Origin: an uncultured Acidobacteriota bacterium
GTDB taxonomy: Bacteria > Acidobacteriota > Thermoanaerobaculia > UBA5066 > Gp7-AA6
DNA length: 64,000 bases
NCBI GenBank assembly: GCA_963782585.1
Contig: CAWAKL010000001.1
Coordinates: 250,133 to 314,132 of the forward strand
Direction: 5' to 3'
Every line of letters begins with the position of its first letter. The first letter of the stretch is position 1. This document shows, piece after piece, positions 18,804 through 57,577 of the stretch. The notes below the pieces were generated by a model. It was not told the origin of the DNA. It saw nothing but the letters and a program-made list of their open reading frames with translations, and searched no databases. A program made the position numbers and the translations under genes.

Positions 18804-18906
18804 GCACGGCCGCCGTTCGAGCTCGCGGGGCGTATGTTTGCAGTCACGCCATCTCCGCCGTGCAAGCGGCGCGCCCGCGCGGCTCGTCTACAATGCTTCT
18901 CACGGC

Positions 18907-27100: not shown

Positions 27101-29059
27101 GGAGGCCGGCCGGGAATCGGAAAGAACCTCGAGCCTTCCTCGCTGGGCGTCGATCAGCTCACCGTCTTCGGCCTCTTCGTCTTCCTGGCGCTCGGATGGT
27201 GGATTTCTTCCGCCGGCAGCCGACTCGCGGGACGGGGCCTCGGCCGGCCGGCGCGGTGGGTCGCCGGGCTGCTCCTGGTCGCCGCGCTCGTGTTCCTCGC
27301 CCTGCGCTTCCCGGACGCGTTCCTTCTGGTCTGCGTGCTGCTCTTTCTCGCGGCCTTCTTCTTCTTCGCCGAAGAGAAAGAAGACCGCCTGACGCTCGCG
27401 TTTCTCGCGGCGGCGTTCTTCCTCGTCCTCTTCACCCAGCGTTTCTACATCGTCGACCGGATGAACACGTTCTTCAAGCTCTACCTGGAAGCCTGGATCC
27501 TCTTCGCGATCGGCACCGCCGTTCTCGTGTTCCGCGGCCGGAATCGCCGGGGCGTGATCGACGCGTGGCCGTGGCCCGCGAAGGCCGCCACCGCGCTCCT
27601 CGTTCTGGCCGCCCTCTTCACGAGTGTGACGGGGGGACGCGCCGCCGTGAGCCGCCATTTCGCGCCGTACTCGGGGCCGTCCCTCGACGGGCTCCGATAC
27701 CTGCAGGAGCAGCGGCCGGGCGAGTACCGCGCCGTCGAGTGGCTGCGACGCAACGTGGCGGGCACTCCCGTCGTGCTCGAGGCCCAGGGGCCCTCGTACC
27801 AGGACTTCGGCCGGATCTCGATGCTCACGGGTCTTCCGACGCTGCTCGGCTGGGACTATCACGTCAAACAGCGGGGCAATCCGGAAAGCGAAATCGAAAC
27901 GCGCAAGAACGTGGTCCGGACGATCTACTCGCACACCGAGGCCGGAAGAGCGATCGCGTACCTCAAACGCTACGGTGTCGGCTACATCTACGTCGGCCCG
28001 GTCGAGCGCAAGACGTATCCGCCGGCGGGCTTGCTGAAGTTCCGTACGAACCCGCAGCAGTTTCCGCTCGTGTACGAGAACCCCGAGGTGCAGATCTACC
28101 GCGTGGCAGGAGGTCCGGCGCAGGACGTGCTGGTTCCCGTCCAGGAGACCCTGCCGCAGACCACCGCCTCCGGGCCTCCCGCCGACGAGCCGGAAGAGAA
28201 ACCCGCGGTGGCGGCTGAGGCCTCGGGCGAGGCCCCCTGGGCGAAGCTCCGCGAGCCGCGCGGCATCGCGGTCGACGGACGAGGACGCGTCTGGGTCGCG
28301 GATTTCGGCAATTCGCGCCTGCGCGTCTTCGATCGCGACGGGGGCTCGCTCGGCGGATGGGGAGGCCGCGGTTCCGGCGAGTTCGGCTTCCGCGAGCTCT
28401 GCGGTCTCGCGATCGCGGGAGACGCGCTCTACGTCGCCGACACCTGGAACGGCCGGGTCCGCGCGTACACCGTCGAGGGCCTCCTGCGCGGCTCGGCCGC
28501 CGAGCTCTACGGCCCGCGCGGCGTCGCCGTCGCTCCGAACGGGCGGGTCTGGGTTGCGGACACGGGCAATCACCGGATCGTCAACTACGGCCCGCTCCTC
28601 GACGATCCGCGCATCGTCGGGAAAAAGGGCGGACGCCCCGGCGAGTTTGCGAGCCCCATCGGCATCGCGGCCTCCCCCGGCGGCGAGATCTACGTCGGCG
28701 ACACGGGCAACCGCCGGATCCAGGTCCTGCATCCGGACGGCTCCCTCGCCCGCGTGCTCGCGTTCCCGGGCTGGGGCGAGAACGTGGAGCCCGGCCTCGC
28801 CGTCGACGCCGACGGAACGATCTGGGCCACCGATCCCGCTACGGCCTCCGTCCTGGCGCTCGATCCGAGCGGCGAAGTGAAGACGCGGATCTCTGCGGAC
28901 GAGAACGGGCGCAAGTTCGAGAACCCGACGGGGCTCGCAATCGACGCGAAAGACCGTATCCTCTACGTCGTCAACTCGGGCTCGAGCACGGTCTCGAAGA
29001 TTCGACTGGCGGCCGCGGCGACTCCCGCCGCTCCGCGGGGCAAGGGGGCGACGCGTTGA
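24104..29059 (+). CDS. 1651-aa fusion protein: N-terminal PMT/ArnT-like GT-C domain + DUF2298 ('YYY') membrane domain + C-terminal NHL-repeat beta-propeller
   Basis: GTG 24104 overlaps the epimerase stop (GTGA). N-terminus resembles GT39 (…HPDERF…). The middle domain parallels gene 18907..21063 (INEYPFWSLVFADLHAH). The C-terminus has six NHL-like repeats (VADTGNHRIV, VGDTGNRRIQ, …). Confidence 0.8.
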   Translation: MTRLPRRRARAILLGILLLGGLFRFQGLNWDEGHHLHPDERFISMVEEKLAFPKEPGAYFDSKRSTLNPYNRGEGSFVYGTLPMVMAKAVAPLFGKKGYGETHLVGRALSGFFDLVTVWLVYRITRRFTHRRAALFAAGLSAFCALGIQLSHFWAVDAVLTAFTAAALLGAVRIAQDRSGLAGDALTGAAIGLAAACKITALALFAPVGIALLVRALARGRARGWMVGQIFAAIPRGLLLLASAAVTVRIFLPHVFLGPSPLSFRLDPRWIDDLRKLKLLSSSVAGFPPALQWAGRTLFFPVENFVLWGAGVAFGLAAIAALLWSFGAILRRRQFVLAPLSLYVLFLFGYHGLTLVKSIRYFYPAYPALAVLTGVAFSSWLSRSRTPGRARFARICALVVLAATFLWAVAFTSIYRRPNTRVEATRWIYSHVPPPKAFANESWDDGLPMPMPNYDPARYAGPSLPLFDPDSPEKVEAVVTALTQADWVAVTSGRVYMNVTRVPVVFPMSIAYYRALFDGELGFRRAADFTSYPSLGPLRFPDDRAEEQFTVYDHPRVLLFQKTPEFSPAKARALLSAAIPQTPPTMHDWERWPRALRRVSAPVRPDRSARPETPAPSYAEPGEPVGRSFGAAAVWYLGLALVGLLGAPLCFAAFPRFADRGFGFARIFGLVIVTYLLTLAVTFRVLANGRRAALVCLLLLAAASAWTFLRNRHDLLRFVRENRRALLQSELVFAAGFVLFLGIRALNPEIFWGEKPMDFSILNILARTRSLPPSDPWLAGAPLGYYTFGQEMVVFLTFLTNLSTRFTFNLAFGMLGGTILQGAFSLARNWGGRLRAGIAGAVLTLLLGNLSGLREWLERKRPLDWDYFWATSRVIRDTINEYPFWSLVFADLHAHVLAIPVFLFFAAAALHYVRLHALPAGSWGRRLSGAVLLGFVAACQALTNAWDVPVLTGMLVLVIPAAAALMPGVTLAGLGRAGAGLLVGAGSAYLFALPLWFRAGGRPGIGKNLEPSSLGVDQLTVFGLFVFLALGWWISSAGSRLAGRGLGRPARWVAGLLLVAALVFLALRFPDAFLLVCVLLFLAAFFFFAEEKEDRLTLAFLAAAFFLVLFTQRFYIVDRMNTFFKLYLEAWILFAIGTAVLVFRGRNRRGVIDAWPWPAKAATALLVLAALFTSVTGGRAAVSRHFAPYSGPSLDGLRYLQEQRPGEYRAVEWLRRNVAGTPVVLEAQGPSYQDFGRISMLTGLPTLLGWDYHVKQRGNPESEIETRKNVVRTIYSHTEAGRAIAYLKRYGVGYIYVGPVERKTYPPAGLLKFRTNPQQFPLVYENPEVQIYRVAGGPAQDVLVPVQETLPQTTASGPPADEPEEKPAVAAEASGEAPWAKLREPRGIAVDGRGRVWVADFGNSRLRVFDRDGGSLGGWGGRGSGEFGFRELCGLAIAGDALYVADTWNGRVRAYTVEGLLRGSAAELYGPRGVAVAPNGRVWVADTGNHRIVNYGPLLDDPRIVGKKGGRPGEFASPIGIAASPGGEIYVGDTGNRRIQVLHPDGSLARVLAFPGWGENVEPGLAVDADGTIWATDPATASVLALDPSGEVKTRISADENGRKFENPTGLAIDAKDRILYVVNSGSSTVSKIRLAAAATPAAPRGKGATR

Positions 29060-31760
29060 ACGAAACCGCAGCAGCGGAGCTCGCGGGCGGCCGGCGGAGA
29101 ATCTCCGGCCGGCTCGCCGCGGCCCTGCTCCTCTTCGCGGCGCTCGCCGTCGCTTCCCGCTTCTGGGCGCTCGGCGACCGGCCCCTCCACCACGACGAGT
29201 CGATCCACGCCTATCAATCGTGGACGCTCTCGCGGGGAGGCGACTGGCGCTATGACCCCGCGTACCACGGCCCGTTCCTCTACTACCTGAACGCCCTCGT
29301 CTACAAGATCTTCGGCGCCACCGACGCGACGGCGCGCCTCGCGCCGGCGTTCTTCGGAGTGATCCTCATCGCGTTTGCCTTCCCGCTCGCCCGCTGGCTC
29401 GGCCGCAAGGCCGCCGTGGCCTACGCGATCTTCGTCCTGCTGACCGCGCACTATCTCTATTTCTCCCGGTTCATCCGCGAGGATCTCTATTCGCTGGTCT
29501 TCACGCTCGGCACGATCGTCGCCTTCCAGCGGTTCCTGGAGACGGACCGGGCGCGATGGCTGCTCGGCTCGGCGGCCTGCTTCGCCTTCGCCGGGGTCAC
29601 GAAGGAGAACGCCTACATGACCGGCGTCCTCTTCGTCGCGTACGGGCTCTGGTGCCTCATCCGCACCGCGCCCTCGCCGGCGGGCCCCAAACCCGGTGCC
29701 GCCGTGGCGGCCGGCTGGCGCTGGACGATCGCGCGCATCGCGCCGGTCGTCTCGGCCGGCCTGCTCTTCCTCGTCATCTGGGCGGCGATGTACACGGCCT
29801 TCGGCAAGTACCCCGGCGACTGGCTCGCGATCCCCAAGGCCGTCAAGTACTGGATGGGCCAGCACGCCATCGCCCGCATCCCGGGGCCCTGGTGGTACTA
29901 CTTCCCGCAGCTCGCCGCCTACGACACCGCGATCGTCGTCGCCGCGCTCTTCGCGTTTCGCCGGCGCGACTGGCGTACCGATCCCTTGCTCCGGACGGTC
30001 CTCGTGGCGCTTCCCCTCTTCGCCGCCTATGTCGCTCTGCATGAGTGGAAGCCCGCCTTCGGCGGGCCCGCGCTGCTCGTGGCGCTCGGCCTGTCCGTCG
30101 TGGCGTTCGTGGTCGCCGGATGGGTCTGGAAACCGCCACCGGTCTCGGAGCTCTCTCCCTTCCTCCAGTTCGTCGCCTTCTGGGCCGTCGGCTCGCTCGC
30201 CATCTACGCATGGGCCCGCGAGAAGGTGCCCTGGCTCACGGTCCATCCCCTTCTGCCTCTGACGGTGCTCGCCGCCATCGGCGTCGCGCGGCTCTGGGAG
30301 GAGCGGCCGAAGCCCTATGCGCGCGCCGGTCTCGTCGCCATCGCCGCGCTTCTCGCGGTCAACGCCTGGGGCGCGTACCTCGCGGCCTTCCGCTACGGAG
30401 CGCACGACGTCGAAAAAGTGCCCGGGCACGCCGAGATGCTCGCGTACGTGCAGACCTCGGAGGATCTCGTCCGCTCCCTTCGCGCCGTTCAGCAGGCGAA
30501 GGGGCGGGTGCCCGACGGCCAGAACCTCGTCACCGTCGCGGGTGAAGCCGCCTGGCCCCTGACCTGGTACCTGCGCGACATCCCGACGACGTGGGCCTCG
30601 CGGATCGAGCAGGCCTCGACACCGGTCATCATCGCGGACTGGGACGCCGAGGGGGCGCTCGAGAAGCAGCTCAGCGACAAGTACGACGCGAAGCGCGTGC
30701 CGATTCGCGCCTGGTGGTTCCCGGAGATTCGCAAGGAAGCGGGGAAACCCACCCGCCCGAGCTTCCGCGACATGCTCCGCCTCTGGCTCTTCCACGAGAT
30801 CTGGAGCCCGATCGGGTCGCAGGACGCGACCGTCTACGTCCGCAAGGACCTCGGCGGCAGCGGCATGCTCGAGCCGCTCTCGGTCGAGGTGCAGGACACG
30901 TCCGCGCGGGACTACCCCAACGAAGCCGTGGAGCTTCCCGCGGGACGCGAGTTCGGCGGACCCGGCGCGGGCCCCGGCCAGCTCTCCGAGCCGCGAGGAG
31001 TCGCCGCGGACGCGAAGGGCAACCTCTACGTCGCGGATTCGAAGAACAGCCGGATCGCGATCTTCGACGGCAACGGTGCGTTCCTGCGGACGGTCGGTTC
31101 TCGGGGCGACGGCGACGGCCAGCTCAACGAGCCGAGCGGCGTCGCCGTCGGGCCGGACGGCGAGATCTACGTCGCCGACACCTGGAACCACCGCGTCGCG
31201 CGCTTCGGGCCGAACGGGGAGTGGCGCGGGCAGTGGAAGGATTCGGACCGTGCTTTCTTCGGTCCGCGCGCGGCCGTCCTCTCGGGCGGATCCTTTACGT
31301 CGCCGACACGGGAAACAAGCGGATCGTCCGCTTCGACGCCGAGGGCAACGTCGCGGGCTCCTGGGGGGGCGCCGGAAACGGACCTGGCCAGTTCGTCGAG
31401 CCCGTCGGGCTCGCCGCGGACGCGGGAGGGCGGATCTACGTCGCGGACACCGGCAACCACCGTGTCCAGGTCTTCGAGGCCGACGGCCGGTTCGTCCGGC
31501 AGTTCCCCGTCTACGGCTGGAAGGATTTCTACACCGAGCCCTACCTCGCCGTGGGCCCGTCCGACGGCGTCTTCGTCACGGATTCCTGGAAGGGCCGGAT
31601 CGCGCACTACGACGCGGCGGGCAATCTCCAGAAGTCGTACTCGGCGAAGGGGCTGAAGAGTCCGACGGGGATCGCGCTCGATGCGTTCGGGAGGGTGTTC
31701 GTTTCGGACCGCGGACAGAACCGGATCGTCTCGTGGGGGCTCGCCGACTTGATGAGGTAG
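29056..31760 (+). CDS. PMT-like GT-C membrane glycosyltransferase (TIGR03663-like) fused to a C-terminal NHL-repeat propeller; apparent single-base frameshift near 31265-31275
   Basis: TTG 29056 overlaps the upstream stop (TTGA). The N-terminal membrane domain is in frame 1 up to …FFGPR. The NHL repeats (YVADTGNKRIV, YVADTGNHRVQ) continue in frame 0 to stop at 31760. Confidence 0.7.
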
Positions 31761-34460: not shown

Positions 34461-36482
34461 TTGATTCACACGTCGGACTTCGCCCCCGCGCGCGACGAGG
34501 CGGGTTCGTCGTTCGCGGATCCGGCGGCGCGCGCTTCCAGCGGTCTGCTCGCCCTCGGGATCGCCGGCGTCCTGCTTCTGACGGCCGCCTGCTGGCCGAT
34601 GCAGCGGCACGCGCTCCCGGCCTGGGCGGCCGCGACCCTCGCGGCTGGCCTCCTCTCGTGGCTCGCCGTCGCCTGGAAATCGGCCGGCGCGGCGGAGGCG
34701 TTGCCCGGGATCGCGCCGGCGCCGGCCAACGTCAACTGGCTGGCCCCCGCGCTCCTCGCCGCCCTCGCGCTCGCAGCTCTCTCCTGGACGCGCACGGCGT
34801 CCGGCCGGTTCGAGATGGTTGGCGTCGCCTCCTGGCTCGGCGCGGTCGTGATCTGGCTCTGGGGGTGGTCGCAGAGCTTCCACGAGACGCCTCGCGACGC
34901 GCGGCCCGCGCCACCGGCGCCAGCGTCTCCCCGCGCTCGACTGTCCGTGGGGCTCGCCCTCCTCGCCATTCTCGCCGTCGGCGCGTTCTTCCGGTTCCAC
35001 GACCTCGCCGGAATTCCTCCGCATCCCGGAAGCGATCATGCCGAGGACCTCCTGAACGTCGAGCAGCTCTCGCGAGGGGAGCGGCCCGTCTTCTTCCCGA
35101 CGAACACGGGGCAGGCGCCGCTCCCCTTCTACTTCGAGTACCTGCTGGTGAAACTCGGCCTGCCGATCAACTACCTCATGCTCAAGATCTCGACCGCCCT
35201 CGTGGGGATGCTCGCGATCCCGGCGATGTACGTTGTCGGCCGCGAGCTCGGCGGCGCGCCCCTCGGGCTCGTGGCCGCCGCGCTGTGCGCCTGGAGCAAG
35301 TGGCCGACGCTGGGCGCACGCCGGGGCCTCACGTTCGCGTGGGCGGTCTTCCCGGCGGCCCTCTTCCTGGCGGCGATCCTCCGGTACATGCGGCGAGGCG
35401 ATCGTCCGAGCGCGCTCTCCGCGGGCTTCTGGCTGGGCCTCGGCCAGTACGGATACAACGCTTTCAAGATCGTCCCGGCGATGGTGCCCCTCGCCTTCGG
35501 GCTCTGCCTCTTCGATCGGCGCTGGAGGCGCCATCGCGGGCGGCTCGTCTTCGACGGCGTCCTCGTCGCGGCCACGGCCCTGCTCGTGTTCCTGCCGCTG
35601 CTCCAGTACATGTTGCAGCGTCCCCAGGACTTCTGGTACCGCGCGATGACGCGCGCGGGCAGCCAGGAGAGGCCGCTCCCCGGCTCGCCCGCCGCCCTCT
35701 TCGCCGGAAACCTCGGCCGCATGGCCCTGGCTTTCCACTACCGCGGGGATCAGGCCTGGATCAACACCGTGGCGGAGGAGCCGTTTCTCGATCCCGTCAC
35801 GGGCGCGTTGCTGCTCGCTGGCCTCGTCGTCGCGGCCGTTCTGATCGTTCGAGGCTCGACCCGCTGGGCCCTCGTGGTCCTCTCCCTGTTCGTGCTGACG
35901 CTCGCCTCGACGCTCGCGCTCGCCTTCCCGGTCGAGAACCCCGGGATCAACCGCGCCTCTGTGGCCATCCCCTCCGTTCTCGTGCTCGCGGGGTTGCCGG
36001 TCGTCTGGCTGCTGCGCCGGGCGCGGGAACGCGGACGCGGATGGCTGTTGGTCGCCGGCGGCGTTCTCGCGGCGCTGGGCGCGCTGTCCCTCCAGCAGAA
36101 CTACGAGAGTTACTTCGTGCGCTTTCGCCACGAGCAGGTGACGATCCTCGAGCCAACCATGGACGTCGTGCGGGTCATGCGCGAGTACCGCGACAACGAG
36201 GGCGTCCCGTTCGACAACGCCTATCTCCTCAACACGACGAACTGGATCGACGGCCGCTGCATCGACTTCGAGATCGGGGACCGCCTCTGGTCCGGGCCCC
36301 ACGACGTCCCGCCCGCACAGCCGGTGCCCCTCATCCGGGACCGGCCGCTCGTGTTCTTCGTCCACCAGAGCGACCGCCCGCGCCGGGAGCAGCTCAAGAC
36401 CGACTACCCGAACGCCGAGGAACACTTCGTCGCGCAGCCGTTCCGGGACCGGAGCTACTTCACGTATTTCGTTCCGCGCTGA
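34461..36482 (+). CDS. Glycosyltransferase family 39 (ArnT/PMT-like) GT-C membrane protein
   Basis: 673 aa. TTG 34461; an alternative ATG is at 34599. Has PGSDHAED (DE-type motif) and many TM helices. Confidence 0.7.
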   Translation: MIHTSDFAPARDEAGSSFADPAARASSGLLALGIAGVLLLTAACWPMQRHALPAWAAATLAAGLLSWLAVAWKSAGAAEALPGIAPAPANVNWLAPALLAALALAALSWTRTASGRFEMVGVASWLGAVVIWLWGWSQSFHETPRDARPAPPAPASPRARLSVGLALLAILAVGAFFRFHDLAGIPPHPGSDHAEDLLNVEQLSRGERPVFFPTNTGQAPLPFYFEYLLVKLGLPINYLMLKISTALVGMLAIPAMYVVGRELGGAPLGLVAAALCAWSKWPTLGARRGLTFAWAVFPAALFLAAILRYMRRGDRPSALSAGFWLGLGQYGYNAFKIVPAMVPLAFGLCLFDRRWRRHRGRLVFDGVLVAATALLVFLPLLQYMLQRPQDFWYRAMTRAGSQERPLPGSPAALFAGNLGRMALAFHYRGDQAWINTVAEEPFLDPVTGALLLAGLVVAAVLIVRGSTRWALVVLSLFVLTLASTLALAFPVENPGINRASVAIPSVLVLAGLPVVWLLRRARERGRGWLLVAGGVLAALGALSLQQNYESYFVRFRHEQVTILEPTMDVVRVMREYRDNEGVPFDNAYLLNTTNWIDGRCIDFEIGDRLWSGPHDVPPAQPVPLIRDRPLVFFVHQSDRPRREQLKTDYPNAEEHFVAQPFRDRSYFTYFVPR

Positions 36483-36490
36483 GGCGCCGC

Positions 36491-36521
36491 CAAAGAAAAC
36501 GGCCGGCCCGAAGGCCGGCCG
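36491..36521 (-). terminator. Intrinsic terminator for the SLH-protein gene: perfect 9-bp GC stem (CGGCCGGCC / GGCCGGCCG), 4-nt loop, then TTTTCTTT on the minus strand
   Basis: Read from sequence. Lies 22 nt downstream of the minus-strand stop (36543) and 18 nt downstream of the plus-strand stop (36482). Confidence 0.6.
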
Positions 36522-36542
36522 TCGCACAAACGGAACTCGGGG

Positions 36543-38843: not shown

Positions 38844-39625
38844 GCCTTCTTCCTCGTCACGCGCTTCAGGGCGTCGGCCTGCTTCATCTCCCTCCGCAGG
38901 TCGAAGAGGTACCGGATGACCCGCAGGATCGTGCCCAGCATCTTGAACGGACGGTGAATCGACTGGCCGGCCTCCCGCGGGAAGTGGCGGACGATCACCT
39001 CGTCGACCTTCCACCCCGCGATCCGGCAGCGCGCATAGATCTCGTCGCCGACGAAGTTGATCCGGTGCTTGATCTCGATGCGGCGCGCGACGTCCCGCCG
39101 GAACGCGCGGCAGCCCGCGTTGATGTCGTGCAGGGGCGAGCCCAGGATCCAGTGCGAGAGGATCCGCAAGCCGCGCGAGAGGATCAGCCGGCCCACCGGA
39201 TCGTGGCGGACCTTCTTCCAGCAGAAGACGACGTCGGCGCCGCGGTCGATCGCCTCGATAAAGAGCGGGGCGTCGCCCATGGTGTGCTGGCCGTCGCCGT
39301 CCACGACCATCACGACTTCGCCCGGGACGTTTCGCAGCGCGGTCTCCGTCGCCACGGCGTAGCCCTTGTTGCCGTCGTGGTGGACCACCGAGACGCGCGG
39401 GTCCTTTTTGGCCAGCTCCTCGGCGATCTCGCCGGTGCGGTCCCGGCTCCCGTCGTTCACGACCACGACGTGCCAGGTGAGGCCCGGGATCGCCGAGAGC
39501 GAGGTGACCGCCTCCTCGACGGTCTTCGCGATCAGGTCCTGCTCGTTGTAGGCGAGGAAGCCGACGCCGAAGCGGACCTTCCGCTCGGCGGTCTCCGTCG
39601 CGGGGGCCCGGGAATCAGCGGCCAT
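38840..39625 (-). CDS. GT2 polyprenyl-phosphate hexose synthase (DPM1/Ppm1-like, soluble type)
   Basis: 261 aa. VVVVNDGSRDRT and DGDGQH motifs are typical of dolichol/polyprenol-phosphate mannose or glucose synthases. Overlaps the UbiA-gene stop by 11 nt. Confidence 0.8.
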   Translation of the reverse strand: MAADSRAPATETAERKVRFGVGFLAYNEQDLIAKTVEEAVTSLSAIPGLTWHVVVVNDGSRDRTGEIAEELAKKDPRVSVVHHDGNKGYAVATETALRNVPGEVVMVVDGDGQHTMGDAPLFIEAIDRGADVVFCWKKVRHDPVGRLILSRGLRILSHWILGSPLHDINAGCRAFRRDVARRIEIKHRINFVGDEIYARCRIAGWKVDEVIVRHFPREAGQSIHRPFKMLGTILRVIRYLFDLRREMKQADALKRVTRKKA

Positions 39626-40538
39626 AGATGATCCAGCCGGCCGTGGCCACCCAGCCGATGACGACCAGAAGAAGCCAGGGGTCGTCGGTCAGCAGCGCGC
39701 GGGTCGGGTTGCCGCCTCCTCCGCCCTTGTACACCAGCCGGACGTAGCGAGCGATTCCGAGCACGACGAAAGGCACCGTCGGCGCGAGCGAGCGGCCGTA
39801 GTGCGTGACCGTCGCGGGCGAGGTGCTGTAGGCGGCATAGCCGGCGACGGTGGCCAGTCCCGTGACGATGAAGAGATGGTCCAGGCCCTCCTCGCGATAC
39901 GCGGCGAGGGCGGGCCGATGCCCGGGCGCGGCGTTGAGAAACTCCCACTGCCGCTTGCCCGCCACGAGAAAGAGGGCGAGGAGGTACGCGCAGCCCATCA
40001 GAAACAGGGAGGGATGCACGGCGGCGAGGGCCGCGCCGGCGAGCGCCCGCAGCGGCATTCCCGCCGCGACCACGAGCGCTTCGAGAAACGGCACGCGCTT
40101 CCAGAGAAGCGAGTAGGTCAGCATCAGCGCGGCATAGACCGCGCACCAGAAACCGAACGGGCGCGAGAGGAGGAACGCCGCCCCGAGGCCGGCGGCCTCC
40201 AGGATCGCCGCGACGGAGATGGCCGTCGACGGCGTGAGCCGGCCCGAGGCGAGAGGGCGGAATCTCTTGACCGGGTGCGCCCGGTCGCGCTCTCGGTCCG
40301 CGACGTCGTTGACGAGGTAGATGCCGCTCGTGATGACGCAGAAGACCGCGACCCCCGCGGCGGCCAGGGCCCAGCCGGCCGGCTCGCCGAGAGCCACGCC
40401 GAACAGAAACGGCAGCGGCACGACCAGGTTCTTGACCCACTGGGCCGGCCGCATCGCGGCCAGGAGCGCGCTGGCGACTCCGCCGGAAGTAGACAAGGGT
40501 TCCGCGGGCGTCGCGTCTCCCGGCGCTGGCGCAGACAT
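39615..40538 (-). CDS. UbiA-family decaprenyl-phosphate phosphoribosyltransferase-like enzyme (Rv3806c/DPPR synthase family)
   Basis: RPAQWVKN, YLVNDVADRERDRAHPVKRFRPLASG and AGKRQWEF blocks match my recollection of the mycobacterial DPPR synthase. Confidence 0.75.
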   Translation of the reverse strand: MSAPAPGDATPAEPLSTSGGVASALLAAMRPAQWVKNLVVPLPFLFGVALGEPAGWALAAAGVAVFCVITSGIYLVNDVADRERDRAHPVKRFRPLASGRLTPSTAISVAAILEAAGLGAAFLLSRPFGFWCAVYAALMLTYSLLWKRVPFLEALVVAAGMPLRALAGAALAAVHPSLFLMGCAYLLALFLVAGKRQWEFLNAAPGHRPALAAYREEGLDHLFIVTGLATVAGYAAYSTSPATVTHYGRSLAPTVPFVVLGIARYVRLVYKGGGGGNPTRALLTDDPWLLLVVIGWVATAGWIIYGR

Positions 40539-40595: not shown

Positions 40596-41831
40596 TCAAT
40601 GCCCCGCGTGGCCCCCGTGTCCTCCGCCCAGACCGATGTCGAATCGGATCCGCGTGAACACGTGGAACGAGACGGGATTCGTCGAGTAGACGTCGTCGAG
40701 CCGATCCGTGAAGCGGTAGAGCGTCAGGTCCGCGCCGACGCCGGTCGTGGCGTTGGGCAGCAGCGTGAAGTCGCGCACGTACCCAAGCGTCCCGGCGTAG
40801 ACGCGCGTGCGATCCAGCGGGACCTCCTCGGGACGCTGACGCTTGAACCTCAACTCGAAGAGATCGCGGTCCACGGCCTCGAAGCGACCGTAGATCGTGT
40901 TGCAGTCGGCAAACTTCCACGTCCCCTCGAGAAGCGTTCCCCAGAACTTCGTGGCCTCTTCGACCTCCTGGTTCTGTCCGGTGATGAGCGAGACCGCCAG
41001 GAACCCGCGCGGAAACGCCTTCTCCCAGGCGAGCATGGCCGTGAACCGGTTGAGGTTCCCGGGCTCCGCCGCCTCGGGATTCGTGAGGTGGCCGCCCGAG
41101 AACTGGACCGTCCAGCCGGGAAGCGGGACGGCGGTGAGCCGGACGGCGTAGGAGTCGATCGCTCCCGCCTTGATGTCCCAGCGGTTCTCATCGGGCTCCG
41201 CGCCGTGGAAGGCCGAGCCCTCCAGCGTGAAGATGGAGGCCTCGAGGCCCAGCGTCAGCACGTCGTAGGAGATGTGCGTCGAGTCCTGATTGTGATGGGA
41301 CAGCGGCGCGGTCGGGTTCGCCGAAGCGGAGAGGCGATGAACGAAAGCCGGAGGACCGAGCGCCGGCTCTCCCACCGCGGCTGCGTAGAAGCGGAGACTC
41401 AATCCGGGTGCGAACGTTTTCTCCCACGCTCCCGCGAGTTGCATGAAGAAGTCGTGGGGGTGCTGGTAGTCCACGAGGAGCACGCCCTGAAACGTCTCGC
41501 CGACCTGGAAGAGCTCCCGGCTGCCGGGATCGGGGATCGTCGCCGGCTCGAGCGAGAGGGTTCCGTAGAAGGAGAGCTTCCCTCCGAGGAACGAGCGGGT
41601 GGCCATCCCCATGAAATGGTTCTGCGACCCGAACTGGTCGCCTCCCGAAGGGCCGCCCTGGTCGTTGTAGGTCAGGTAGGCCCAGCCGTGGACCATCGTC
41701 ATCCAGTGGTCCATCGCGGGCATCTGCTCCATCGCGACCATCGGGTCGACCGGGGCGACGGGTTCCTGTCCCGACACGAGCGGGGCCGCGAGGCCGAGAG
41801 CAATCGAAAGTAGGCCGACACGAAGAAACAT
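40596..41831 (-). CDS. Secreted / probable outer-membrane beta-barrel protein with a His-rich C-terminal tail (GGGHGGHAGH)
   Basis: ATG 41831 preceded by AGGAGG. Signal peptide MFLRVGLLSIALGLAAPLVSGQEP. Alternating-pattern beta-strand-like sequence ending in aromatic residues. Confidence 0.6.
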   Translation of the reverse strand: MFLRVGLLSIALGLAAPLVSGQEPVAPVDPMVAMEQMPAMDHWMTMVHGWAYLTYNDQGGPSGGDQFGSQNHFMGMATRSFLGGKLSFYGTLSLEPATIPDPGSRELFQVGETFQGVLLVDYQHPHDFFMQLAGAWEKTFAPGLSLRFYAAAVGEPALGPPAFVHRLSASANPTAPLSHHNQDSTHISYDVLTLGLEASIFTLEGSAFHGAEPDENRWDIKAGAIDSYAVRLTAVPLPGWTVQFSGGHLTNPEAAEPGNLNRFTAMLAWEKAFPRGFLAVSLITGQNQEVEEATKFWGTLLEGTWKFADCNTIYGRFEAVDRDLFELRFKRQRPEEVPLDRTRVYAGTLGYVRDFTLLPNATTGVGADLTLYRFTDRLDDVYSTNPVSFHVFTRIRFDIGLGGGHGGHAGH

Positions 41832-41899
41832 CCCATCCTCCTGAGGCCGGGCGGACGCGCCCGGCGAAACGCGCGAAAACAACGGCTCGCGCCGGAGGA

Positions 41900-42259
41900 T
41901 CAGAGGCGCTGGGGGATGTGGGCGATTCGCGCGACGAGAGCGGCGGGCGAAGCCGCAGTTCCGGTCTGCGCATGCGCCGTCGTGCGGAGCTCGACGGCGA
42001 TGACTGCAACGCCGGCCGGCGCTGCAGGAGCGGAGGGTCTCGCGGCGGCCAGGCTGTCCGACGGCGACGGCGGCGCCGGGGCCATGGCCTCGTCGCATCC
42101 GCAGCAACTCGCGTCCGTGATGGAGAGGTCGATCTCGGCGGCCGGCGCGCAGCAGTCAAAGCAGAATGCGGCGGCCGGACCGGCGAGGACGGCCAGGGCG
42201 ATCAGGGCGGCGACGAGGGAACGCAGCATGGACACGGAAGAAAGCATGCGCCCGCCCAT
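41900..42259 (-). CDS. Small secreted Cys-rich protein (CFDCC…CCGCDE), putative metal-binding
   Basis: Signal peptide MLRSLVAALIALAVLAGPAAA. Seven Cys in about 35 residues. Lies between the MerR-type regulator and the His-tailed OMP on the same strand. No homolog recognised. Confidence 0.4.
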   Translation of the reverse strand: MGGRMLSSVSMLRSLVAALIALAVLAGPAAAFCFDCCAPAAEIDLSITDASCCGCDEAMAPAPPSPSDSLAAARPSAPAAPAGVAVIAVELRTTAHAQTGTAASPAALVARIAHIPQRL

Positions 42260-43169: not shown

Positions 43170-44065
43170 TTACCCCTTGGCCGTCCGCATCTGGGCGACG
43201 CGTCCCGGCGCGCGCTTGGCCGGCTTCCGCGCAGGCGCTTGTTCGCCGGACGCAGCCTTCTTCGTATCCGCCGTAGCCTTGGCGGAGGCGGAGGGCTTCT
43301 TTGCGAGGCTCGCCTTCAGGGCTTCCATCAGGTCGATGATCTGGCCGCCGCCCGTGGCCTCGGGAACGATCGAGATGTCCTGGCCCTCGACCTTCTTCTG
43401 GATGAGGCCGAGCACGCGCTTTTTCACGTCGTCCTCGTAGGTCTCGGGCTTGAAGGCGTTCGCGGCGCGCTGCTCCACGAGGAGCTTCGCGAGATCGAGC
43501 TCCTTCGAGCTGACCTCGGCCGGCTCGAGCGGCACTTCCGAGAAGGACCGGACCTCGTCGGCGTAGAGGAGCTGCTGCATCACGATCCCGTTCTCGAAGG
43601 GTCGGAGCATGACGAGGTACATCTTTCCGCGAGCGGCGTACCGGGCGAGGGCGACCCGCCCGGTCTCCTTCATGACCTCGGAGAGGAGGGCGTACGCTTT
43701 GGCGCCGCCCTTGTCGGGGCCGACGTAGTAGGTCCGCTCGAAATAGACCGGGTCGACTTTCGTGATCGGCACGAACTCGACGACCTCGACCGACTGGGTC
43801 GACTGCTCTTCGAGGGCCTTGAGCTCCTCGGGCGTGAAGGTGACGTAGCGGTCCTTCGAGAACTCGAAGCCCTTGACCATCTGGTCGCGGGGCACGATCT
43901 CGCCGTCCTTCGTGCAGATGTACTGCTGCTTGAGGCGCGCGCGTCCTTCGCGTGCAGCATGTTGAAGGAGACTCCCGCCGAGGCATCCGAGGCGGCGTAG
44001 AGCTTGATCGGGATCGAGACGAGCCCGAAGGAGATGGTCCCTGACGCTATCGGCCTTGCGCTCAT
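43170..44065 (-). CDS. ku: Ku protein (NHEJ) with an apparent single-base frameshift near 43940-43950 in a GCGCGCGC run
   Basis: N-terminus MSARPIASGTISFGLVSIPIKLY…FNMLHAKD in one frame. Continuation …RLKQQYICTKDGEIVPRDQMVKGFEF… through to the Lys-rich tail in the adjacent frame. Confidence 0.8.
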
Positions 44066-44111: not shown

Positions 44112-46636
44112 TTGCCCCTCGAGAAATACAGGCAAAAACGGTCGGCGGATTCCACCCCCGAGCCCTTCGGCCGGGGGGGTGAAAATCGCCCGCATCTCTT
44201 CGTCGTTCAGAAACATGCGGCCACCCGGCTCCACTGGGATTTCCGCCTCGAGTGGGCCGGCGTCCTGAAGTCCTGGGCCGTGCCGCAGGGCCCCTCCGCC
44301 GACCCGGCCGACAAGCGCCTGGCCGTCGAGGTCGAGGACCACCCGGTCGAGTACGCTGATTTCGAAGGCGTCATCCCCGACGGCAACTACGGCGCCGGCG
44401 AGGTCATCGTTTGGGACCAGGGCCGCTGGACTCCGCTCGCCGACCTCGACGAGGGGTTGAAGAAGGGCAAGCTCCTCTTCGAGCTGCACGGCTACAAGCT
44501 CCGCGGCACCTGGACCCTCGTCCGGATGAAGACGAAGGGCAAGACGACCGGCAAGGAGTGGCTCCTCATCAAGGAGCGCGACGGGTGGGCGAAGAAGGGG
44601 CCCGAGGCCGCGTACCCGCAGGAATCGATCTTCTCGGGCCTCACGATCGAGGATCTCAAATCCGGCAAGAGCCGGGCGGACGAGATCCGCGCCGAGCTCG
44701 AGAGACTCGGGGCGCCGCGCAGGAGAGTCCGGGCCGCGGACGTCAAGCTGATGCTGGCCGAGACGCGCGACTCCGCGTTCACGCGGCCCGGCTGGATCTG
44801 GGAGCTCAAGTACGACGGCTATCGCCTCCTGGCGGGGCGCGAGAGCGGAAAGACGATCCTGCGCTACCGGCACGGCATGGACTCGACGGCGACGTTTCCG
44901 GAGATCGCCCGCGCCGTGTCCGCTCTCCCCTGCGACGCCTTCGTCCTCGACGGCGAGGTCGTCGTGCTCGACCCGAGCGCGCGGCCGCGGTTCGGACTTC
45001 TGCAGAAGCGCGGCCTCCTCCAGCGCCGCACCGACATCGAGCGCGCCGCGGTCGAGCTTCCGGCGACGTACTTTGCCTTCGATCTTCTCGGCTTCGAGGA
45101 CTACGACCTGCGAGGCCTGCCGCTCTCGACCCGCAAGGCGCTCCTGCAGCGCTTCGTGCCGAAGGCCGGGCCCCTCCGCTTCGCCGACCACATCGAGGAG
45201 AAGGGCGACGACCTGCTCGCGGCCGCGGGCGAGCTCGGCCTCGAAGGCGTCGTCGGGAAGAAGGCGGACTCGACGTATCGCGGGGCGCGCTCCGCGGACT
45301 GGCTCAAGGTGAGGCTCGATCGCGCGGGCGATTTCGCCGTGGTCGGTTACACGAAGCCCGACGGCGGACGCTCGGGATTCGGCGCGCTGCATCTGGCCTA
45401 CTGGCAGGAGGGCGGACTGCGTCTACGGCGGCCGCGTCGGCACGGGGTTCTCGGACAAGCAGCTGCGCGAGATCCACGCCCGACTCGAGAAGAGCGTTCG
45501 GGAGAATCCCGCGTTCGGCGGCGCCGTCCCGACCGGACGCGACCACGTCTGGGTCGAGCCGGAGATGGTGGTGGAGGTGCGCTTCAAGGAGTGGACGGGC
45601 GACGGGCTCCTGCGGCATCCCGCGTTTCTGCGCCTGCGCGAGGACAAGCCGATCGAGGAGTGCGTGCGCGAGGCCGACCCGGGCAGCCATGAGCCGCCGG
45701 CCCGAACCGCCGTAGCCTCGGCGAAGGCGGTCGAGAAGGACGAGAAGACCGTCCCGTTCTCGAACCTCACGAAGGTCTTCTGGCCGGACGAGGGCTACAC
45801 CAAGGGCGACCTCATCGAGTACTACCGGGCGATCTCGCCGTGGCTCCTCCCCTATCTCGCCGACCGTCCGCTCGTCATGACCCGCTACCCCGACGGCATC
45901 GACGGCAAGTCGTTCTTCCAGAAGGACGCCCCCAACTTCGCGCCGGACTGGATCCGACTCGAGCGCATCTGGAGCGAGCACGCCGAGCGCGAGATCGACT
46001 ACTTCGTCTGCGACGACCTCGAGACGCTGCTCTACGTCGCGAACCTCGGCTCGATTCCCCTCCACGTGTGGGCCAGCCGCGTCGCCGCGCCGGAGCGGCC
46101 GGACTGGTGCATCCTGGATCTCGATCCGAAGGGCGCCCCGTTCTCGCACGTCGTCACGATCGCCCGGGCGATCCGCGAGCTCTGCGAGGAGATCGAGCTG
46201 CCGAGCTTCATCAAGACGAGCGGAGCGACGGGCCTCCACGTCCTCATCCCGCTCGGCGGCCAGTGCACGCACTCGGAGTCGCGCGTCTTCGGCGAGATCC
46301 TCGCCCGCGTCATCGAGCAACGCCACGGCAAGATCGCCACGACGGCCCGGGCCATCGGAGCCCGCGACGGAAAGGTCTACGTCGACTATCTCCAGAATGG
46401 CCACGGCAAGACGATCGCCGGGCCCGTTCTCGGCGCGGCCCGTCCCCGGCGCCACCTGCTCGGCGCCCCTGAAGTGGAGCGAGGTGGACGGGAAGCTCGA
46501 CCCGAAGAAGTACACGCTGAAGACGCTTCCGGCGCGGATGAAGAAGCTGAAGGACGATCCGCTCGCGCCGGTCCTGACGCTCAAGCCGGATCTGCAGAGC
46601 GCCCTGACGAAGCTGACCGGACGGCTCAAGCCGTGA
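44112..46636 (+). CDS. ligD: Multidomain LigD (phosphoesterase + ligase + polymerase) with two apparent +1 frameshifts (about 45405-45420 and about 46430-46445)
   Basis: TTG 44112. PE domain (FVVQKHAATRLHWDFRLE…), ligase (ELKYDGYR), polymerase (…FIKTSGATGLHVLIPL…). The three parts are in frames 0, 1 and 2 successively. Divergent from ku. Confidence 0.8.
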
Positions 46637-47235
46637 GACAGCGCCGCGCGACTCCGATCACGTCGCCGATGAGCCAGGTCGCGGCGGCCGCGACGCGAGG
46701 ATAGACGACCCGGCCGTCGACGGCGAGGCCGCGCCGCTCGAGCGCCGAGAGGAGCGTATCGGGCTCCGGCACGCGCATCCTCTCGAAGGAGTGCGTCGCC
46801 AGAGGATAGAACCCCCTCAGGAAGCGGCCGGTGACCCACTCGAAGTAGTAACGCCCGCCGGGCTTGAGGACGCGCCGGACTTCGTCGAGCGCCTGCTCCC
46901 AGGGCGCAATGAAATGAATCGCTCCGAAGTCGAAGACCGCGTCGAACGTCGCGTCCCGGAAGGGAGTGCCGGTCGCGTCGGCGAGAAGCACTCGAGCGCT
47001 CCGCGGGCGCGCGGGCGAGCATCCGAGGATCGAGATCGATCCCGACGATCTCGGCGAGTCCGAAGCGCTCGCGCAGCATCGCGAGCGCGGCGCCCCGACC
47101 GCAGCCGACTTCGAGACCCCGCCCGCCGGGAACATGACCGCCGAGGCGCTCGAGCCACGGGGCCATGAAACGCCGCTGCAGAAAGGCCCGCAACGGGTTG
47201 TTCATCGAGGCCCGGCCGAGCGCGTTGAGCCTCAT
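46626..47235 (-). CDS. SAM-dependent methyltransferase with an apparent frameshift near 47000-47012
   Basis: ATG 47235 overlaps the DUF72 stop (ATGA). GLEVGCGRGAA motif, then the frame switches to …FDFGAIHFIAPWEQALDEVRRVLKPGG…. Confidence 0.6.
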
Positions 47236-50816: not shown

Positions 50817-51004
50817 CCGTCGCTAGGCGCGGCGCTCCGGGTCTGCGCCGTGGCGCACCGGCCTGCGGCTCGCCCAAAGGGGCTCGACCGCAGGCCTGAC
50901 CCTGCGCTTCGCGCTTCGCTCCCGCGGCGCGAACCTCCTCCCTACCTTCGGTCGGGAGACTATTCGCGCCGCGAGCAAAGAGACCAGCGCGGCGAGTGGA
51001 GGTA

Positions 51005-52520
51005 TCAGGTCGCGGAGAGACGCCCCGCGAGAAGAGCCATCCGGCGAAGCCGCTCGGCCTCCTCCGGCCGGAACGCCCAGTCCGGCGCGCGCCAGGTCCA
51101 GTTGCCGGCGGGCTCGGCGGGCGTGTTCATGCGGGCCTCGCCGCCGAGGCCGAGCACGTCCTGCACAGGAACGAGCGCCACGCCGGGCGACGGAGCCGTA
51201 GGCCGCGCGGATGAGCGCCCAGTGGACCTCGCTGCCGTCCGAGCCGAGGTAGTCGTACACCCGTTCTCGCTCCTCGGGCTTGAGCGCCGCGTACCAGCCC
51301 TTCGCCGTGTCGTTGTCGTGGGTGCCCGTGTAGACGAGCGCGTTCTCGGTGTGACGATGCGGCAGGTATTCGCTGTCCGCTCCGTAGAACGCGAACTGCA
51401 GGACCTTCATCCCCGGAAAGCCGAGCTCGGCGAGAAGGGCCTTCACGTCCGCGTCGATGTCGCCGAGATCCTCCGCGACGATGGGAAGCGGGTCTCCCCC
51501 GAGCGCGACGCGAGCGGCTTCGAAGAGTTTCGCGCCGGGACCCGGGACCCACTTTCCGTTCAGAGCGGTTGTTTCGCCGGCGGGCACGGCCCAGTACGCC
51601 GAGAACGCGCGGAAGTGGTCCATGCGAAGGAGGTCGCAGAGGCGCAGGTTCGCGCGCAGCCGCTCGATCCACCACTCGTAACCCGTCGTCTCCGCCTGTT
51701 CCCAGTCGTAGAGTGGGTTGCCCCAGAGCTGGCCGGTCTCCGAAAAGTAATCCGGCGGCACGCCGGAAACGGCCATCGGCTGCCCCATCTCGTCGATCTG
51801 AAAGAGGTCGGGGTGTGCCCATACGTCCGCCGAGTCGAGCGAGACGTAGATCGGCACGTCGCCCATGATCTCCACGCCGCGCTCCTTCGCCGCGGCGCGC
51901 ACGCGGTCCCACTGGCGGAAGAAGAGGTACTGGAGGTAGGCCTGAAAGGACACTTCCGCCTCCAGCTCTCCGGTGGCTCGCTCCAGCGCGTCCGGCTCGC
52001 GCTGCCGCAGGTCCTTGTCCCACGACGTCCAGGGCCGACCCGAGAAACGCGCCTTGAGGGCCGCGAAGAGCGTCCAGTCGGCGAGCCACGCCGCACGTTC
52101 CGGCGATTTCCGAAACTTCTCGAGCTCGTCCCGCGCCGGATCGCCGGCGTGGGCCAGGAAGTGGTCCCAGGACTGGTGGAGGATGCGCTCCTTCCAGCGG
52201 ATCACCGACGGGAAGTCCACGCGCTCCTTCGAAAACGTCGGCAGATCCTCGAAGGCCGAGACGGGAAGGAATCCGTCCTTCAGCAGAAGCTCCGGCGAGA
52301 TCAGCAGCGGATTCCCGGCGAAGGCCGAGGCACCGCCGTAGGGCGCGCCGCCGCCGCCGATCGTCGTCAGCGGCAGCACCTGCCACAGTGTCTGGCCGGC
52401 CGACTTCGCCCAGTCGAGGAAGCGATCCACCCACGGACCGAAGTCGCCGATACCGAACGGGCCCGGAAGCGACGTGGGGTGAAGGAGAATTCCGGCGGAC
52501 CGGGGCGCCGAAGACGTCAC
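51005..52520 (-). CDS. malQ: 4-alpha-glucanotransferase MalQ (GH77) with an apparent frameshift near 51170-51180
   Basis: GTG 52520 overlaps the glgP stop (GTGA). The C-terminus …ALVPVQDVLGLGGEARMNTPAEPAGNWTWRAP… is in the neighbouring frame. Confidence 0.8.
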
Positions 52521-57566: not shown

Positions 57567-57577
57567 GGCTACGCAGG

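Follow-up and report, generated by a model that had tools for sequence, protein, structure and literature searches.

The gene described here lies on the minus strand of a 64,000-nucleotide stretch of DNA from an uncultured Acidobacteriota bacterium of the Thermoanaerobaculia (assembly GCA_963782585.1, contig CAWAKL010000001.1, positions 250,133 to 314,132); this whole stretch is called the window below. The gene encodes a membrane protein of the UbiA superfamily, hereafter the focal protein, and is followed by genes for a family 2 glycosyltransferase (GT2) and a UDP-galactopyranose mutase (UGM). An earlier note, made from the letters of the sequence, had taken the protein for a mycobacterial-type decaprenyl-phosphate phosphoribosyltransferase (DPPR synthase, DPPRS), homologous to Rv3806c and occurring outside Actinobacteria.

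Organization of the locus

The focal open reading frame (ORF) was found exactly at 39615-40538, and the three motif blocks quoted for it are in place (RPAQWVKN, residues 30-37; YLVNDVADRERDRAHPVKRFRPLASG, residues 74-99; AGKRQWEF, residues 193-200). The window has a G+C content of about 70%, and the ORF shows the strong third-position GC bias that is seen in the real genes of the window; the focal ORF is real. The 307-residue protein has no extra domain. Its close homologs are abundant in metagenomes (66-90% identity), those that carry a name belong to metagenome-assembled genomes (MAGs) of Thermoanaerobaculia or Acidobacteriota.

The three genes of the trio overlap. The ATG of the GT2 gene is located 11 nt before the stop codon of the UbiA-type gene, and the GTG of the UGM gene overlaps the TGA of the GT2 gene (GTGA), which is why the UGM gene was taken to be the frame of 452 amino acids listed in Table 1 and not the maximal ORF of 509 amino acids. 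The earlier claim of an operon shared with a DPM1-like GT2 and a UGM is thus borne out by the overlapping stops and starts, and also by the arrangement kept in relatives (see below). The transcription unit probably ends at the hairpin after the gene of the SLH-like protein. An upstream ORF of 503 amino acids (40596-42107) was considered as an additional operon member and was rejected, as it is not conserved beside the trio in relatives.

Table 1. Features of the locus, in window coordinates (aa, amino acids; GT-C, glycosyltransferase of the GT-C fold; AF2, AlphaFold2)
Feature	Position	Strand	Evidence
UbiA-fold membrane enzyme of the polyprenyl-phosphate phosphoribosyltransferase (PPPRS/DPPRS) family, 307 aa	39615..40538	-	profiles, structure match, residues, tree
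GT2 of the polyprenyl-phosphate glycosyltransferase type (DPM1/ArnC/GtrB-like), 261 aa	38840..39625	-	Pfam, NCBIfam, PDB
Eukaryote-type UGM, 452 aa	37485..38843	-	PDB matches, active-site residues
Secreted protein with C-terminal SLH-like domain, 272 aa	36543..37361	-	signal-peptide-like N-terminus, marginal Pfam SLH
Terminator-like hairpin, stem of 11 bp with 9 GC pairs, T-run	36498..36523	-	strong; after the SLH-like gene
GT-C (GT39/ArnT-like), 673 aa, polytopic	34461..36482	+	tagged homologs, at least 12 hydrophobic segments predicted
Lipoprotein-like protein, 187 aa	33820..34383	-	domain in common with the C-terminus of the 680-aa GT-C
GT-C with C-terminal CBM32-like beta-sandwich, 680 aa	31764..33806	-	homologs, AF2 model
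Agl23-family (TIGR03663) membrane protein with NHL repeats	28357..31656	+	TIGR03663 299.4 bits (cut-off 126); Pfam PMT_2, NHL
Fusion of PMT_2 (GT-C), DUF2298/TIGR03662 and NHL repeats, 1651 aa	24104..29059	+	Pfam, TIGR
SDR sugar epimerase/dehydratase	23046-24107	+	Pfam
GT4 glycosyltransferase	21060-22208	+	Pfam
DUF2298/TIGR03662 membrane protein	18760-21063	+	Pfam, TIGR

Family assignment of the focal protein

The only Pfam match of the focal protein was the generic UbiA family (80 bits, E=1.6e-22), and the annotation given to its relatives by the Joint Genome Institute (JGI) is "4-hydroxybenzoate polyprenyltransferase". Both facts would agree with an ordinary UbiA-type prenyltransferase, acting in quinone, haem O, chlorophyll or ether-lipid synthesis, that was misread as a DPPR synthase. 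The profile hidden Markov model (HMM) searches speak against such a misreading. The NCBIfam decaprenyl-phosphate phosphoribosyltransferase models NF008977 and NF008978 scored 181.6 and 173.2 bits (E=2e-53 and 7e-51), the HAD-fused PRK08238 model NF006088 scored 151 bits and the third DPPRS model, NF008976, 132 bits, whereas the models for the enzymes of quinone, haem, chlorophyll and ether-lipid synthesis (UbiA, CyoE, MenA-like, DGGGPS, ChlG) all stayed at or below 45.6 bits.

Structural comparison gave the same answer. When the PDB was searched with the sequence, the sole match was Rv3806c (8j8j, E=8e-28, residues 21-303), the decaprenyl-phosphate 5-phosphoribosyltransferase of Mycobacterium tuberculosis, whose structures 8j8j and 8j8k have been described together with the roles of the site residues (PMC10994848); no other solved protein of the UbiA superfamily was matched. 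The two proteins are 33% identical over their full length, a value similar to the 31% identity between Rv3806c and the experimentally proven PPPRS of Citrobacter (PMC11127046). An AF2 model of the focal protein (predicted local distance difference test, pLDDT, 83.5; predicted template modelling score, pTM, 0.79) retrieved 8j8j and 8j8k as top Foldseek hits (TM-scores 0.80/0.84, 30% identity), followed by AfUbiA (0.67), DGGGPS (0.56) and ApUbiA (0.54). The second Asp-rich motif of the prenyltransferases, DRDDD in E. coli UbiA, is absent; the GKRQWE sequence that aligns with it is of the PPPRS type (GKRxxE).

In a neighbour-joining (NJ) tree of 45 sequences, which was weakly rooted with E. coli UbiA, MenA and CyoE and was built without Citrobacter youngae ORF15, PSPA7_6246 and NoeC, the three outgroup proteins were split from all PPPRS-like sequences, including those of the focal clade, in 100/100 bootstraps. 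A grouping with quinone/haem prenyltransferases, for which the earlier note had suggested to look, was thus not observed. The focal clade was monophyletic (100/100 bootstraps), and this deep clade was found only in Acidobacteriota (Thermoanaerobaculia). Quinone and haem genes were not linked to the gene in the loci scanned, its neighbours are glycosylation genes. HMM scores, PDB match, missing Asp-rich motif, tree and neighbours together effectively refute the ordinary prenyltransferase, and we give it next to no credence. Within the UbiA superfamily, the focal protein belongs with the Rv3806c-type polyprenyl-phosphate phosphoribosyltransferases (PPPRS/DPPRS), as had been proposed, and among the members of this known, very large family it is new and divergent.

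Active-site residues

The residue roles used in the comparison were taken from the cryo-electron microscopy paper on Rv3806c (PMC10994848). Eleven positions of Rv3806c (R22, K28, Y70, N73, D74, D77, D81, R90, Y138, K191 and R192) were invariant in 143 diverse representatives of the family, and all 11 are present in the focal protein, where the conserved residues are R30, K36, Y74, N77, D78, D81, D85, K91, R94, Y142, K147, K195, R196 and E199. The NDxxDxxxD motif is kept as N77, D78, D81 and D85, and includes the counterparts of the Mg2+ ligands N73 and D77 of Rv3806c. The cluster that binds the diphosphate of phosphoribosyl pyrophosphate (PRPP) is complete (R22, K87, R90, K143 and Y138 in Rv3806c correspond to R30, K91, R94, K147 and Y142), and two of the 5-phosphate ligands (K28 and Y70, corresponding to K36 and Y74) and the lipid-phosphate ligand K191 (K195) are kept. 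Of the four contacts specific to phosphoribose that true prenyltransferases lack (K28, Y70, Q135 and Y157), K28 and Y70 are thus conserved, and Q135 and Y157 are replaced by Met. M161, GMPLRA (replacing GFVLRA) and KRQWE (replacing KRRxE) form a signature found only in the focal clade.

The GT2 and the UGM

The GT2 matched Glycos_transf_2 in Pfam (1.9e-29), and no transmembrane segment was predicted in it by a hydropathy scan. Its best NCBIfam models (dolichyl-P hexose transferase, PgfS, ArnC, AglJ and PpgS) all describe polyprenyl-phosphate sugar synthases, and its best PDB matches were the dolichyl-phosphate mannose synthase (DPMS) of Pyrococcus furiosus (5mlz), ArnC (9bhc/8vxh) and GtrB (5ekp); residues 21-245 align with residues 30-248 of the P. 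furiosus enzyme and 12-221 of ArnC with E-values of about 1e-15, and the likeness to DPMS, ArnC and GtrB takes in the GT-A domain and the interface helices. We also considered whether the protein could be GlfT1/GlfT2-like. This was rejected, as it matched only DPMS, ArnC and GtrB, and GlfT2 had no match in the window.

The UGM is of the eukaryotic type. It matched the enzymes of Trypanosoma cruzi (4dsg, E=2e-99) and Aspergillus fumigatus (3uka, E=2e-95) in the PDB sequence search, which returned no bacterial UGM structure. It is 41% identical to the A. fumigatus enzyme (AfUGM), and 26 of the 27 active-site and uridine-binding residues are the same (residue list from PMC3322874), among them the eukaryote-specific F66, N207, W315, Y317 and Q458, as well as R182, R327, Y419, Y453, N457 and H63; AfUGM H68 is replaced by Gly. 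Because the ligands of uridine and of the diphosphate are kept, the substrate should be a UDP-sugar. The idea that the flavoprotein is an oxidase of the amine-oxidase fold substituting for DprE1 was rejected, since it is a full UGM with these 26 residues.

Related bacterial genes (33-39% identity) were found on plasmids of Streptomyces, Pantoea, Methylomagnum and others, with an annotation that goes no further than "FAD-dependent oxidoreductase" or "NAD(P)-binding protein". This suggests that there is an under-annotated bacterial family of eukaryote-type UGMs. A search of the searchable literature for bacterial eukaryote-type UGMs yielded nothing relevant, such an absence is of course no proof.

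Conservation of the arrangement

Nineteen loci of the focal clade (65-90% identity), corresponding to 18 distinct ones since L004 and L011 represent the same contig, were compared over flanks of +/-10 kb. All 18 encode a GT2 ortholog (76-90% identity) downstream of the PPPRS, 16 of them directly; it lies 316 nt downstream in L072 and approximately 1.35 kb downstream in L015, where a gene for an AI-2E family transporter is inserted between the two. The UGM is present in 16 of the 18. The remaining two, L014 (10001-16884) and L015 (10001-17854), have kept PPPRS, GT2, GT-C and the Agl23-like protein and have no UGM within 10 kb; the PPPRS is thus a closer companion of the GT2 than the UGM is. Outside the focal clade UGM was found in none of the loci compared, and the PPPRS-GT2 pairs that do occur there (L077, L081) involve unrelated GT2s (27-28% identity). 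The conserved, clade-specific coupling of the PPPRS to a DPM1-like GT2 and a eukaryote-type UGM is the unusual part of this system.

Such tight coupling brings up the question whether PPPRS and GT2 act serially on a single lipid intermediate, the GT2 adding for example a hexose or hexofuranose to the 5-phosphate or a hydroxyl of polyprenyl-P-ribose-5-P, or whether the clade has shifted its donor or acceptor specificity. The invariable presence of the GT2, its retention in the UGM-less loci L014 and L015 and its 11-nt overlap with the PPPRS gene would fit this explanation, and so would the lack of a membrane anchor of its own, the absence of a phosphatase gene nearby, and the clade-specific GMPLRA and KRQWE substitutions, which are near the site of the 5-phosphate and the lipid phosphate. 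However, the phosphatase Rv3807c is dispensable in mycobacteria, therefore a missing phosphatase gene is weak evidence. Serial action is pure inference for which we found no precedent, the characterised GT2s of this type (DPMS, ArnC, GtrB) use polyprenyl phosphate itself as acceptor, and the pairs in L077 and L081 look like independent combinations of a PPPRS with an unrelated GT2. We consider this explanation quite improbable.

Further genes of the window

Directly after the UGM gene, in a local dip of the G+C content (0.645 for 36-38 kb), lies the gene of the SLH-like protein. Its single SLH-like domain scored 20.1 bits in Pfam, marginally under the cut-off of 20.8; the corresponding genes of L001, L003 and L005 are also listed with Pfam SLH, and a homologous ORF is present in seven loci. 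As the usual ligands of SLH domains are secondary cell-wall polymers, the protein might bind the glycan of the locus. It is possible that it is a ligand-binding or substrate protein, its membership in the module is uncertain.

Two membrane proteins encoded next to the operon are GT-C glycosyltransferases. Since direct Pfam, NCBIfam and PDB sequence searches with them gave no match, this identity was drawn from Pfam-tagged homologs and from predicted structure. Homologs of the 673-amino-acid protein (32-48% identity over at least 72% of the length) have PF13231 assigned and bear GT39 or ArnT-like names. PF13231 and GT39 names are also found on the homologs of the 680-amino-acid protein, in which the first periplasmic loop contains an invariant D47-E48. 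The AF2 model of the latter (pLDDT 91) matched ArnT (5f15/5ezm) best in Foldseek and then, with similar significance, AftD (6wby), PglB, EmbC and AftA; its C-terminal domain matched CBM32 and F5/8 type C folds. The neighbouring 187-amino-acid lipoprotein is related to this C-terminal domain (phmmer E about 1e-17) and would thus be CBM32/galactose-binding-like, which suggests a free-standing copy of the glycan-binding module of the GT-C.

The real start of the Agl23-like protein is probably near 29.06-29.13 kb. Twelve of the 18 distinct loci of the clade have an ortholog approximately 2.6-10 kb from the trio. Agl23 is a putative hexose-P-dolichol flippase (PMC11182771), and by analogy the protein encoded in the window is a candidate flippase for polyprenyl-P-sugars, or it could be a further GT-C. 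A putative lipid-sugar flippase family of the archaeal/Chloroflexi type thus occurs in Acidobacteriota, together with the two TIGR03662/DUF2298 proteins of Table 1 (18760-21063 and 24104-29059). The 1651-amino-acid fusion protein probably belongs to the same envelope-glycosylation island, of which the genes between 18760 and 24107 are possible further members.

Elsewhere in the window, LigD (44112-46704, plus strand) is apparently broken by a single-base frameshift near 45410-45425, where the junction reads ...GGL followed by VYGGRVGTGFSDK. The phosphoesterase and the ligase core are in one frame (44112-45692), the ligase OB and the primase-polymerase in another (45565-46704), which reflects either an assembly error or a pseudogene. 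Genes for Ku (43170-43895) and for a second ATP-dependent ligase (17862-18803) are also present. An alpha-glucan gene cluster (50823-59362, minus strand), comprising a GH77 4-alpha-glucanotransferase, a glucan phosphorylase with DUF3417, a GH57/DUF3536 protein and an alpha-amylase-family enzyme, is unrelated to the PPPRS.

Searches for other genes of the pathway

Reference proteins were collected from several annotated loci: DprE1-like and DprE2-like proteins from a Flammeovirgaceae plasmid, HAD-IB and GtrA proteins from a Lactococcus plasmid, and PAP2, Glf, GlfT2 and AftB from Rhodococcus and Tsukamurella. A tblastn search of the 64-kb window with all reference proteins detected nothing except the PPPRS itself. 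For DprE1 and DprE2 there was no tblastn match at E<=0.01 and none in the Pfam scan of about 40 window ORFs, so the earlier statement that no such epimerase pair is visible in the window holds by both methods. In the same scan FAD_binding_4, PAP2, HAD, MatE, GtrA and SMR had no match either. In the relatives, DprE1/DprE2 were found within +/-9 kb of the PPPRS gene in none of the 18 distinct clade loci. In a wider comparison of 86 loci (81 of the 85 family loci L001-L085 and five non-family reference loci), to which the window was added, a DprE1/E2-like pair was present only in L068 and HAD only in L083.

These results bear on the possibility that the focal protein is the entry enzyme of a genuine decaprenyl- or undecaprenyl-phosphoryl-arabinose (DPA-type) pathway, with DprE1/DprE2 and a phosphatase encoded elsewhere in the genome and with GT-Cs that are arabinofuranosyltransferases. 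The first reaction would be the same as in the ribofuranose pathway that we favour (see Discussion), and AftD, EmbC and AftA are among the fold matches of the neighbouring GT-C. In Mycobacterium, as is established, dprE1/E2 are not adjacent to ubiA, and they were also not seen near ubiA of Tsukamurella (over approximately 77 kb of a record, about 55 kb of it on one side). On the other hand, the pair was missing from the window and from the flanks of the 18 clade loci, whereas arabinofuranose systems outside Actinobacteria cluster it with the PPPRS (Flammeovirgaceae plasmid; L068; PMC11127046), and ArnT matches the GT-C fold as well as the Aft and Emb enzymes do. A DPA-type pathway therefore seems unlikely to us.

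Distribution of the family

The occurrence of such an enzyme outside Actinobacteria, to which the earlier note had drawn attention, is true, it is neither remarkable nor new. An exhaustive HMMER search of 1.84 billion cluster representatives found 8077 clusters (50% identity) at E<=1e-10 and 1034 at E<=1e-30. When one genome per GTDB species was scanned, homologs with 33-45% identity were detected in dozens of phyla; the groups include Myxococcota, Chloroflexota (with Herpetosiphon aurantiacus), Bacillota, Planctomycetota, Armatimonadota, Patescibacteria and Pseudomonadota. The NCBI Prokaryotic Genome Annotation Pipeline (PGAP) already gives the name "decaprenyl-phosphate phosphoribosyltransferase" to plasmid copies of Flammeovirgaceae (Bacteroidota), Lactococcus, Marivivens (Alphaproteobacteria) and haloarchaea. 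Biochemical work by Kelly et al. 2024 showed that undecaprenyl-P-ribofuranose is the product of such enzymes and serves periplasmic GT-Cs; the authors called the pathway widespread (PMC11127046). With thousands of clusters, many phyla, existing database names and this publication, the non-actinobacterial occurrence must be regarded as already known.

Two associations were observed elsewhere in the family. A DUF362 protein of about 370 amino acids is encoded directly 3' of the PPPRS-like gene (-30 to +192 nt) in 11 loci from many phyla (L021, L022, L026, L031, L037, L047, L056, L057, L059, L076 and L079), a pairing for which we came across no description; it implies that much of the PPPRS family works outside the DprE/HAD contexts described so far. 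In three unrelated genomes (L054, L076, L082) a gene for ribose-phosphate pyrophosphokinase (PRPP synthetase) is situated approximately 1.7-2.0 kb downstream of the PPPRS homolog, which is consistent with PRPP as the donor of the family.

Discussion

It is instructive to compare the locus with the systems described for other organisms. The gene neighbourhood had been said to mirror the Rv3806c-Rv3809c region of mycobacteria. The likeness turned out to be nominal: the gene order in the Mycobacteriales loci (Tsukamurella, Rhodococcus) is glf-glfT2-PAP2-ubiA-aftB, and no tblastn homolog of PAP2 (Rv3807c), the bacterial Glf, GlfT2 or AftB was detected in the window. The neighbouring GT2 is GlfT2 in mycobacteria and DPM1/ArnC-like here, and the UGM is of the eukaryotic type, i.e. 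both belong to other classes. In the Tsukamurella and Rhodococcus loci the GT-C gene that follows ubiA, in the aftB position (L086 20872-22878 and L088 8956-10827), is annotated "flagellar motor control protein ZomB", an automatic name that seems misleading for a protein of the arabinofuranosyltransferase type.

A closer parallel is offered by the O1/O2 system of C. youngae, in which ORF15 is a PRP-PPPRS, ORF14 a MATE flippase, ORF12 a GT136 GT-C with a carbohydrate-binding module (CBM) and ORF13 an epimerase; systems consisting of PPPRS, flippase and GT-C add ribofuranose (Ribf), xylofuranose (Xylf) or arabinofuranose (Araf) in other bacteria (PMC11127046). Both PPPRS enzymes are non-actinobacterial and similarly distant from Rv3806c, both loci link the PPPRS to GT-Cs of which one has a CBM (C-terminal in the window), and without an epimerase the predicted product is polyprenyl-P-Ribf. 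There are several differences, too. The window encodes no HAD phosphoribose phosphatase, whether fused or separate. No MATE protein was found, the candidate flippase is instead of the Agl23 family. The GT-Cs are GT39/ArnT-like and may differ from GT136. The locus adds an obligatory DPM1-like GT2 and usually a UGM, and it is not an O-antigen locus.

Further likenesses are partial. In the pilin D-arabinofuranosylation of Pseudomonas (para)aeruginosa PA7/Pa5196, also a Gram-negative, a PPPRS homolog feeds the GT-C TfpW (bioRxiv 10.1101/2020.04.19.049825; PMC11127046). There and in clusters of the Flammeovirgaceae type (e.g. L090) DprE1/DprE2 homologs stand beside the PPPRS, unlike in the focal clade. 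The hexose branch resembles Agl22/Agl23 of Haloarcula hispanica, as the best NCBIfam model of the DPM1-like GT2 is that of a haloarchaeal dolichyl-P hexose transferase, although the GT2 reached only 70 bits while the equivalog cut-off of the Agl22-type model is 375. With Agl22/Agl23 and GtrA/GtrB/GtrC the locus has in common an Agl23-family protein, which scored above its cut-off, and extracytoplasmic GT-Cs, but its hexose branch comes together with a PPPRS and a UGM, and no GtrA was found. In contrast to the eukaryotic UGMs of A. fumigatus and T. cruzi, the UGM of the window is encoded in a bacterial operon. The system differs in the tested respects from each described one, the mycobacterial DPA pathway as well as the three-component system of Citrobacter.

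We propose that the locus is a variant extracytoplasmic furanose-glycosylation module with the PPPRS as its PRPP-using entry enzyme, and estimate the probability of this interpretation at about 0.6. Judging from the Rv3806c structures, the PPPRS would be a nine-helix UbiA-fold enzyme of the cytoplasmic membrane binding PRPP at the cytoplasmic face, with Mg2+ held by N77 and D81, the diphosphate by R30, K91, R94, K147 and Y142, and the 5-phosphate by K36 and Y74. The polyprenyl phosphate, bound by K36 and K195, would attack C1 with inversion to give polyprenyl-P-beta-D-ribofuranose-5-phosphate, which may be dephosphorylated by an unlinked phosphatase or not at all. The DPM1/ArnC-type GT2, whose synthesis would be translationally coupled to that of the PPPRS, would make a second polyprenyl-P-linked sugar; the UGM would supply UDP-galactofuranose (UDP-Galf), the obvious donor for the GT2 where a UGM is present. 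The lipid-linked donors would then be flipped, possibly by the Agl23-like protein, and could be used by the GT39/ArnT-like GT-Cs for the decoration or synthesis of an extracytoplasmic envelope glycan. A glycan acceptor is suggested by the CBM32-like module on one of the GT-Cs. As to the final sugar, no epimerase pair is linked to the PPPRS, and the pentose thus most likely stays ribofuranose.

It must be noted that several observations weigh against this interpretation. A phosphatase for the 5-phosphate (PAP2 or HAD) was not found in the window or in the flanks of the relatives, nor was a MATE or GtrA flippase (searched by Pfam and, for GtrA, with the Lactococcus query; MATE by Pfam only), and the relatives' flanks contain no recognised epimerase beside the trio. 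Two substrate contacts of Rv3806c are changed: Q135 corresponds to M139, at a position that varies family-wide (N/Q/M/T/S), and Y157 corresponds to M161, where 133 of the 143 family sequences have F, 9 have Y, and M/L occur in the focal clade only. The scores of the focal protein are below the curated NCBIfam equivalog cut-offs (181.6 against 234 for NF008977, 173.2 against 207 for NF008978, 132 against 474 for NF008976); this denies that it is an equivalog of the modelled enzymes, it does not deny its membership in the family. In the NJ tree the focal clade lies outside the group that contains Rv3806c and its Rhodococcus, Tsukamurella, Lactococcus and Flammeovirgaceae homologs, of which the Lactococcus and Flammeovirgaceae proteins are validated by their context. 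Of the original designation as a mycobacterial-type DPPR synthase, the family is therefore right, whereas strict orthology, given the sub-cut-off scores and the separate deep branch, is unproven.

The proposed module could take the form of a so far undescribed extracytoplasmic furanoside pathway of the Thermoanaerobaculia, in which one operon provides two lipid-linked furanose donors, polyprenyl-P-ribofuranose and polyprenyl-P-galactofuranose, which are flipped by the Agl23-like protein and used by the GT-Cs. The ribofuranose donor would possibly keep its 5-phosphate, and the galactofuranose donor would be made from UDP-Galf by the DPM1-like GT2. The battery of GT-Cs might polymerise or attach the donors in a way similar to mycobacterial arabinan assembly, possibly producing the ligand of the SLH-like protein. 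We consider this scheme possible and rather doubtful. A lipid-linked Galf donor ("lipid-linked galactofuranose", "Und-P-Galf") had no occurrence in the searchable literature, again an absence that proves nothing.

Taken by itself, the enzyme is no surprise in a family of this size. The results have no bearing on tuberculosis drug targets, and they are no demonstration of D-arabinan outside Actinobacteria. The locus flags, however, bacterial eukaryote-type UGMs that are annotated only as "FAD-dependent oxidoreductase", and it offers a clonable cassette of three genes for asking whether a lipid-linked galactofuranose donor exists. If our interpretation is right, the route from PRPP through polyprenyl-P-pentofuranose to a GT-C would extend to the Acidobacteriota, a phylum that is abundant in soil and of which few members have been cultured, and would do so in a different form, with no linked phosphatase or epimerase, with another candidate flippase, and with a second lipid-sugar synthase that is obligatory and coupled to a UGM of the eukaryotic type.

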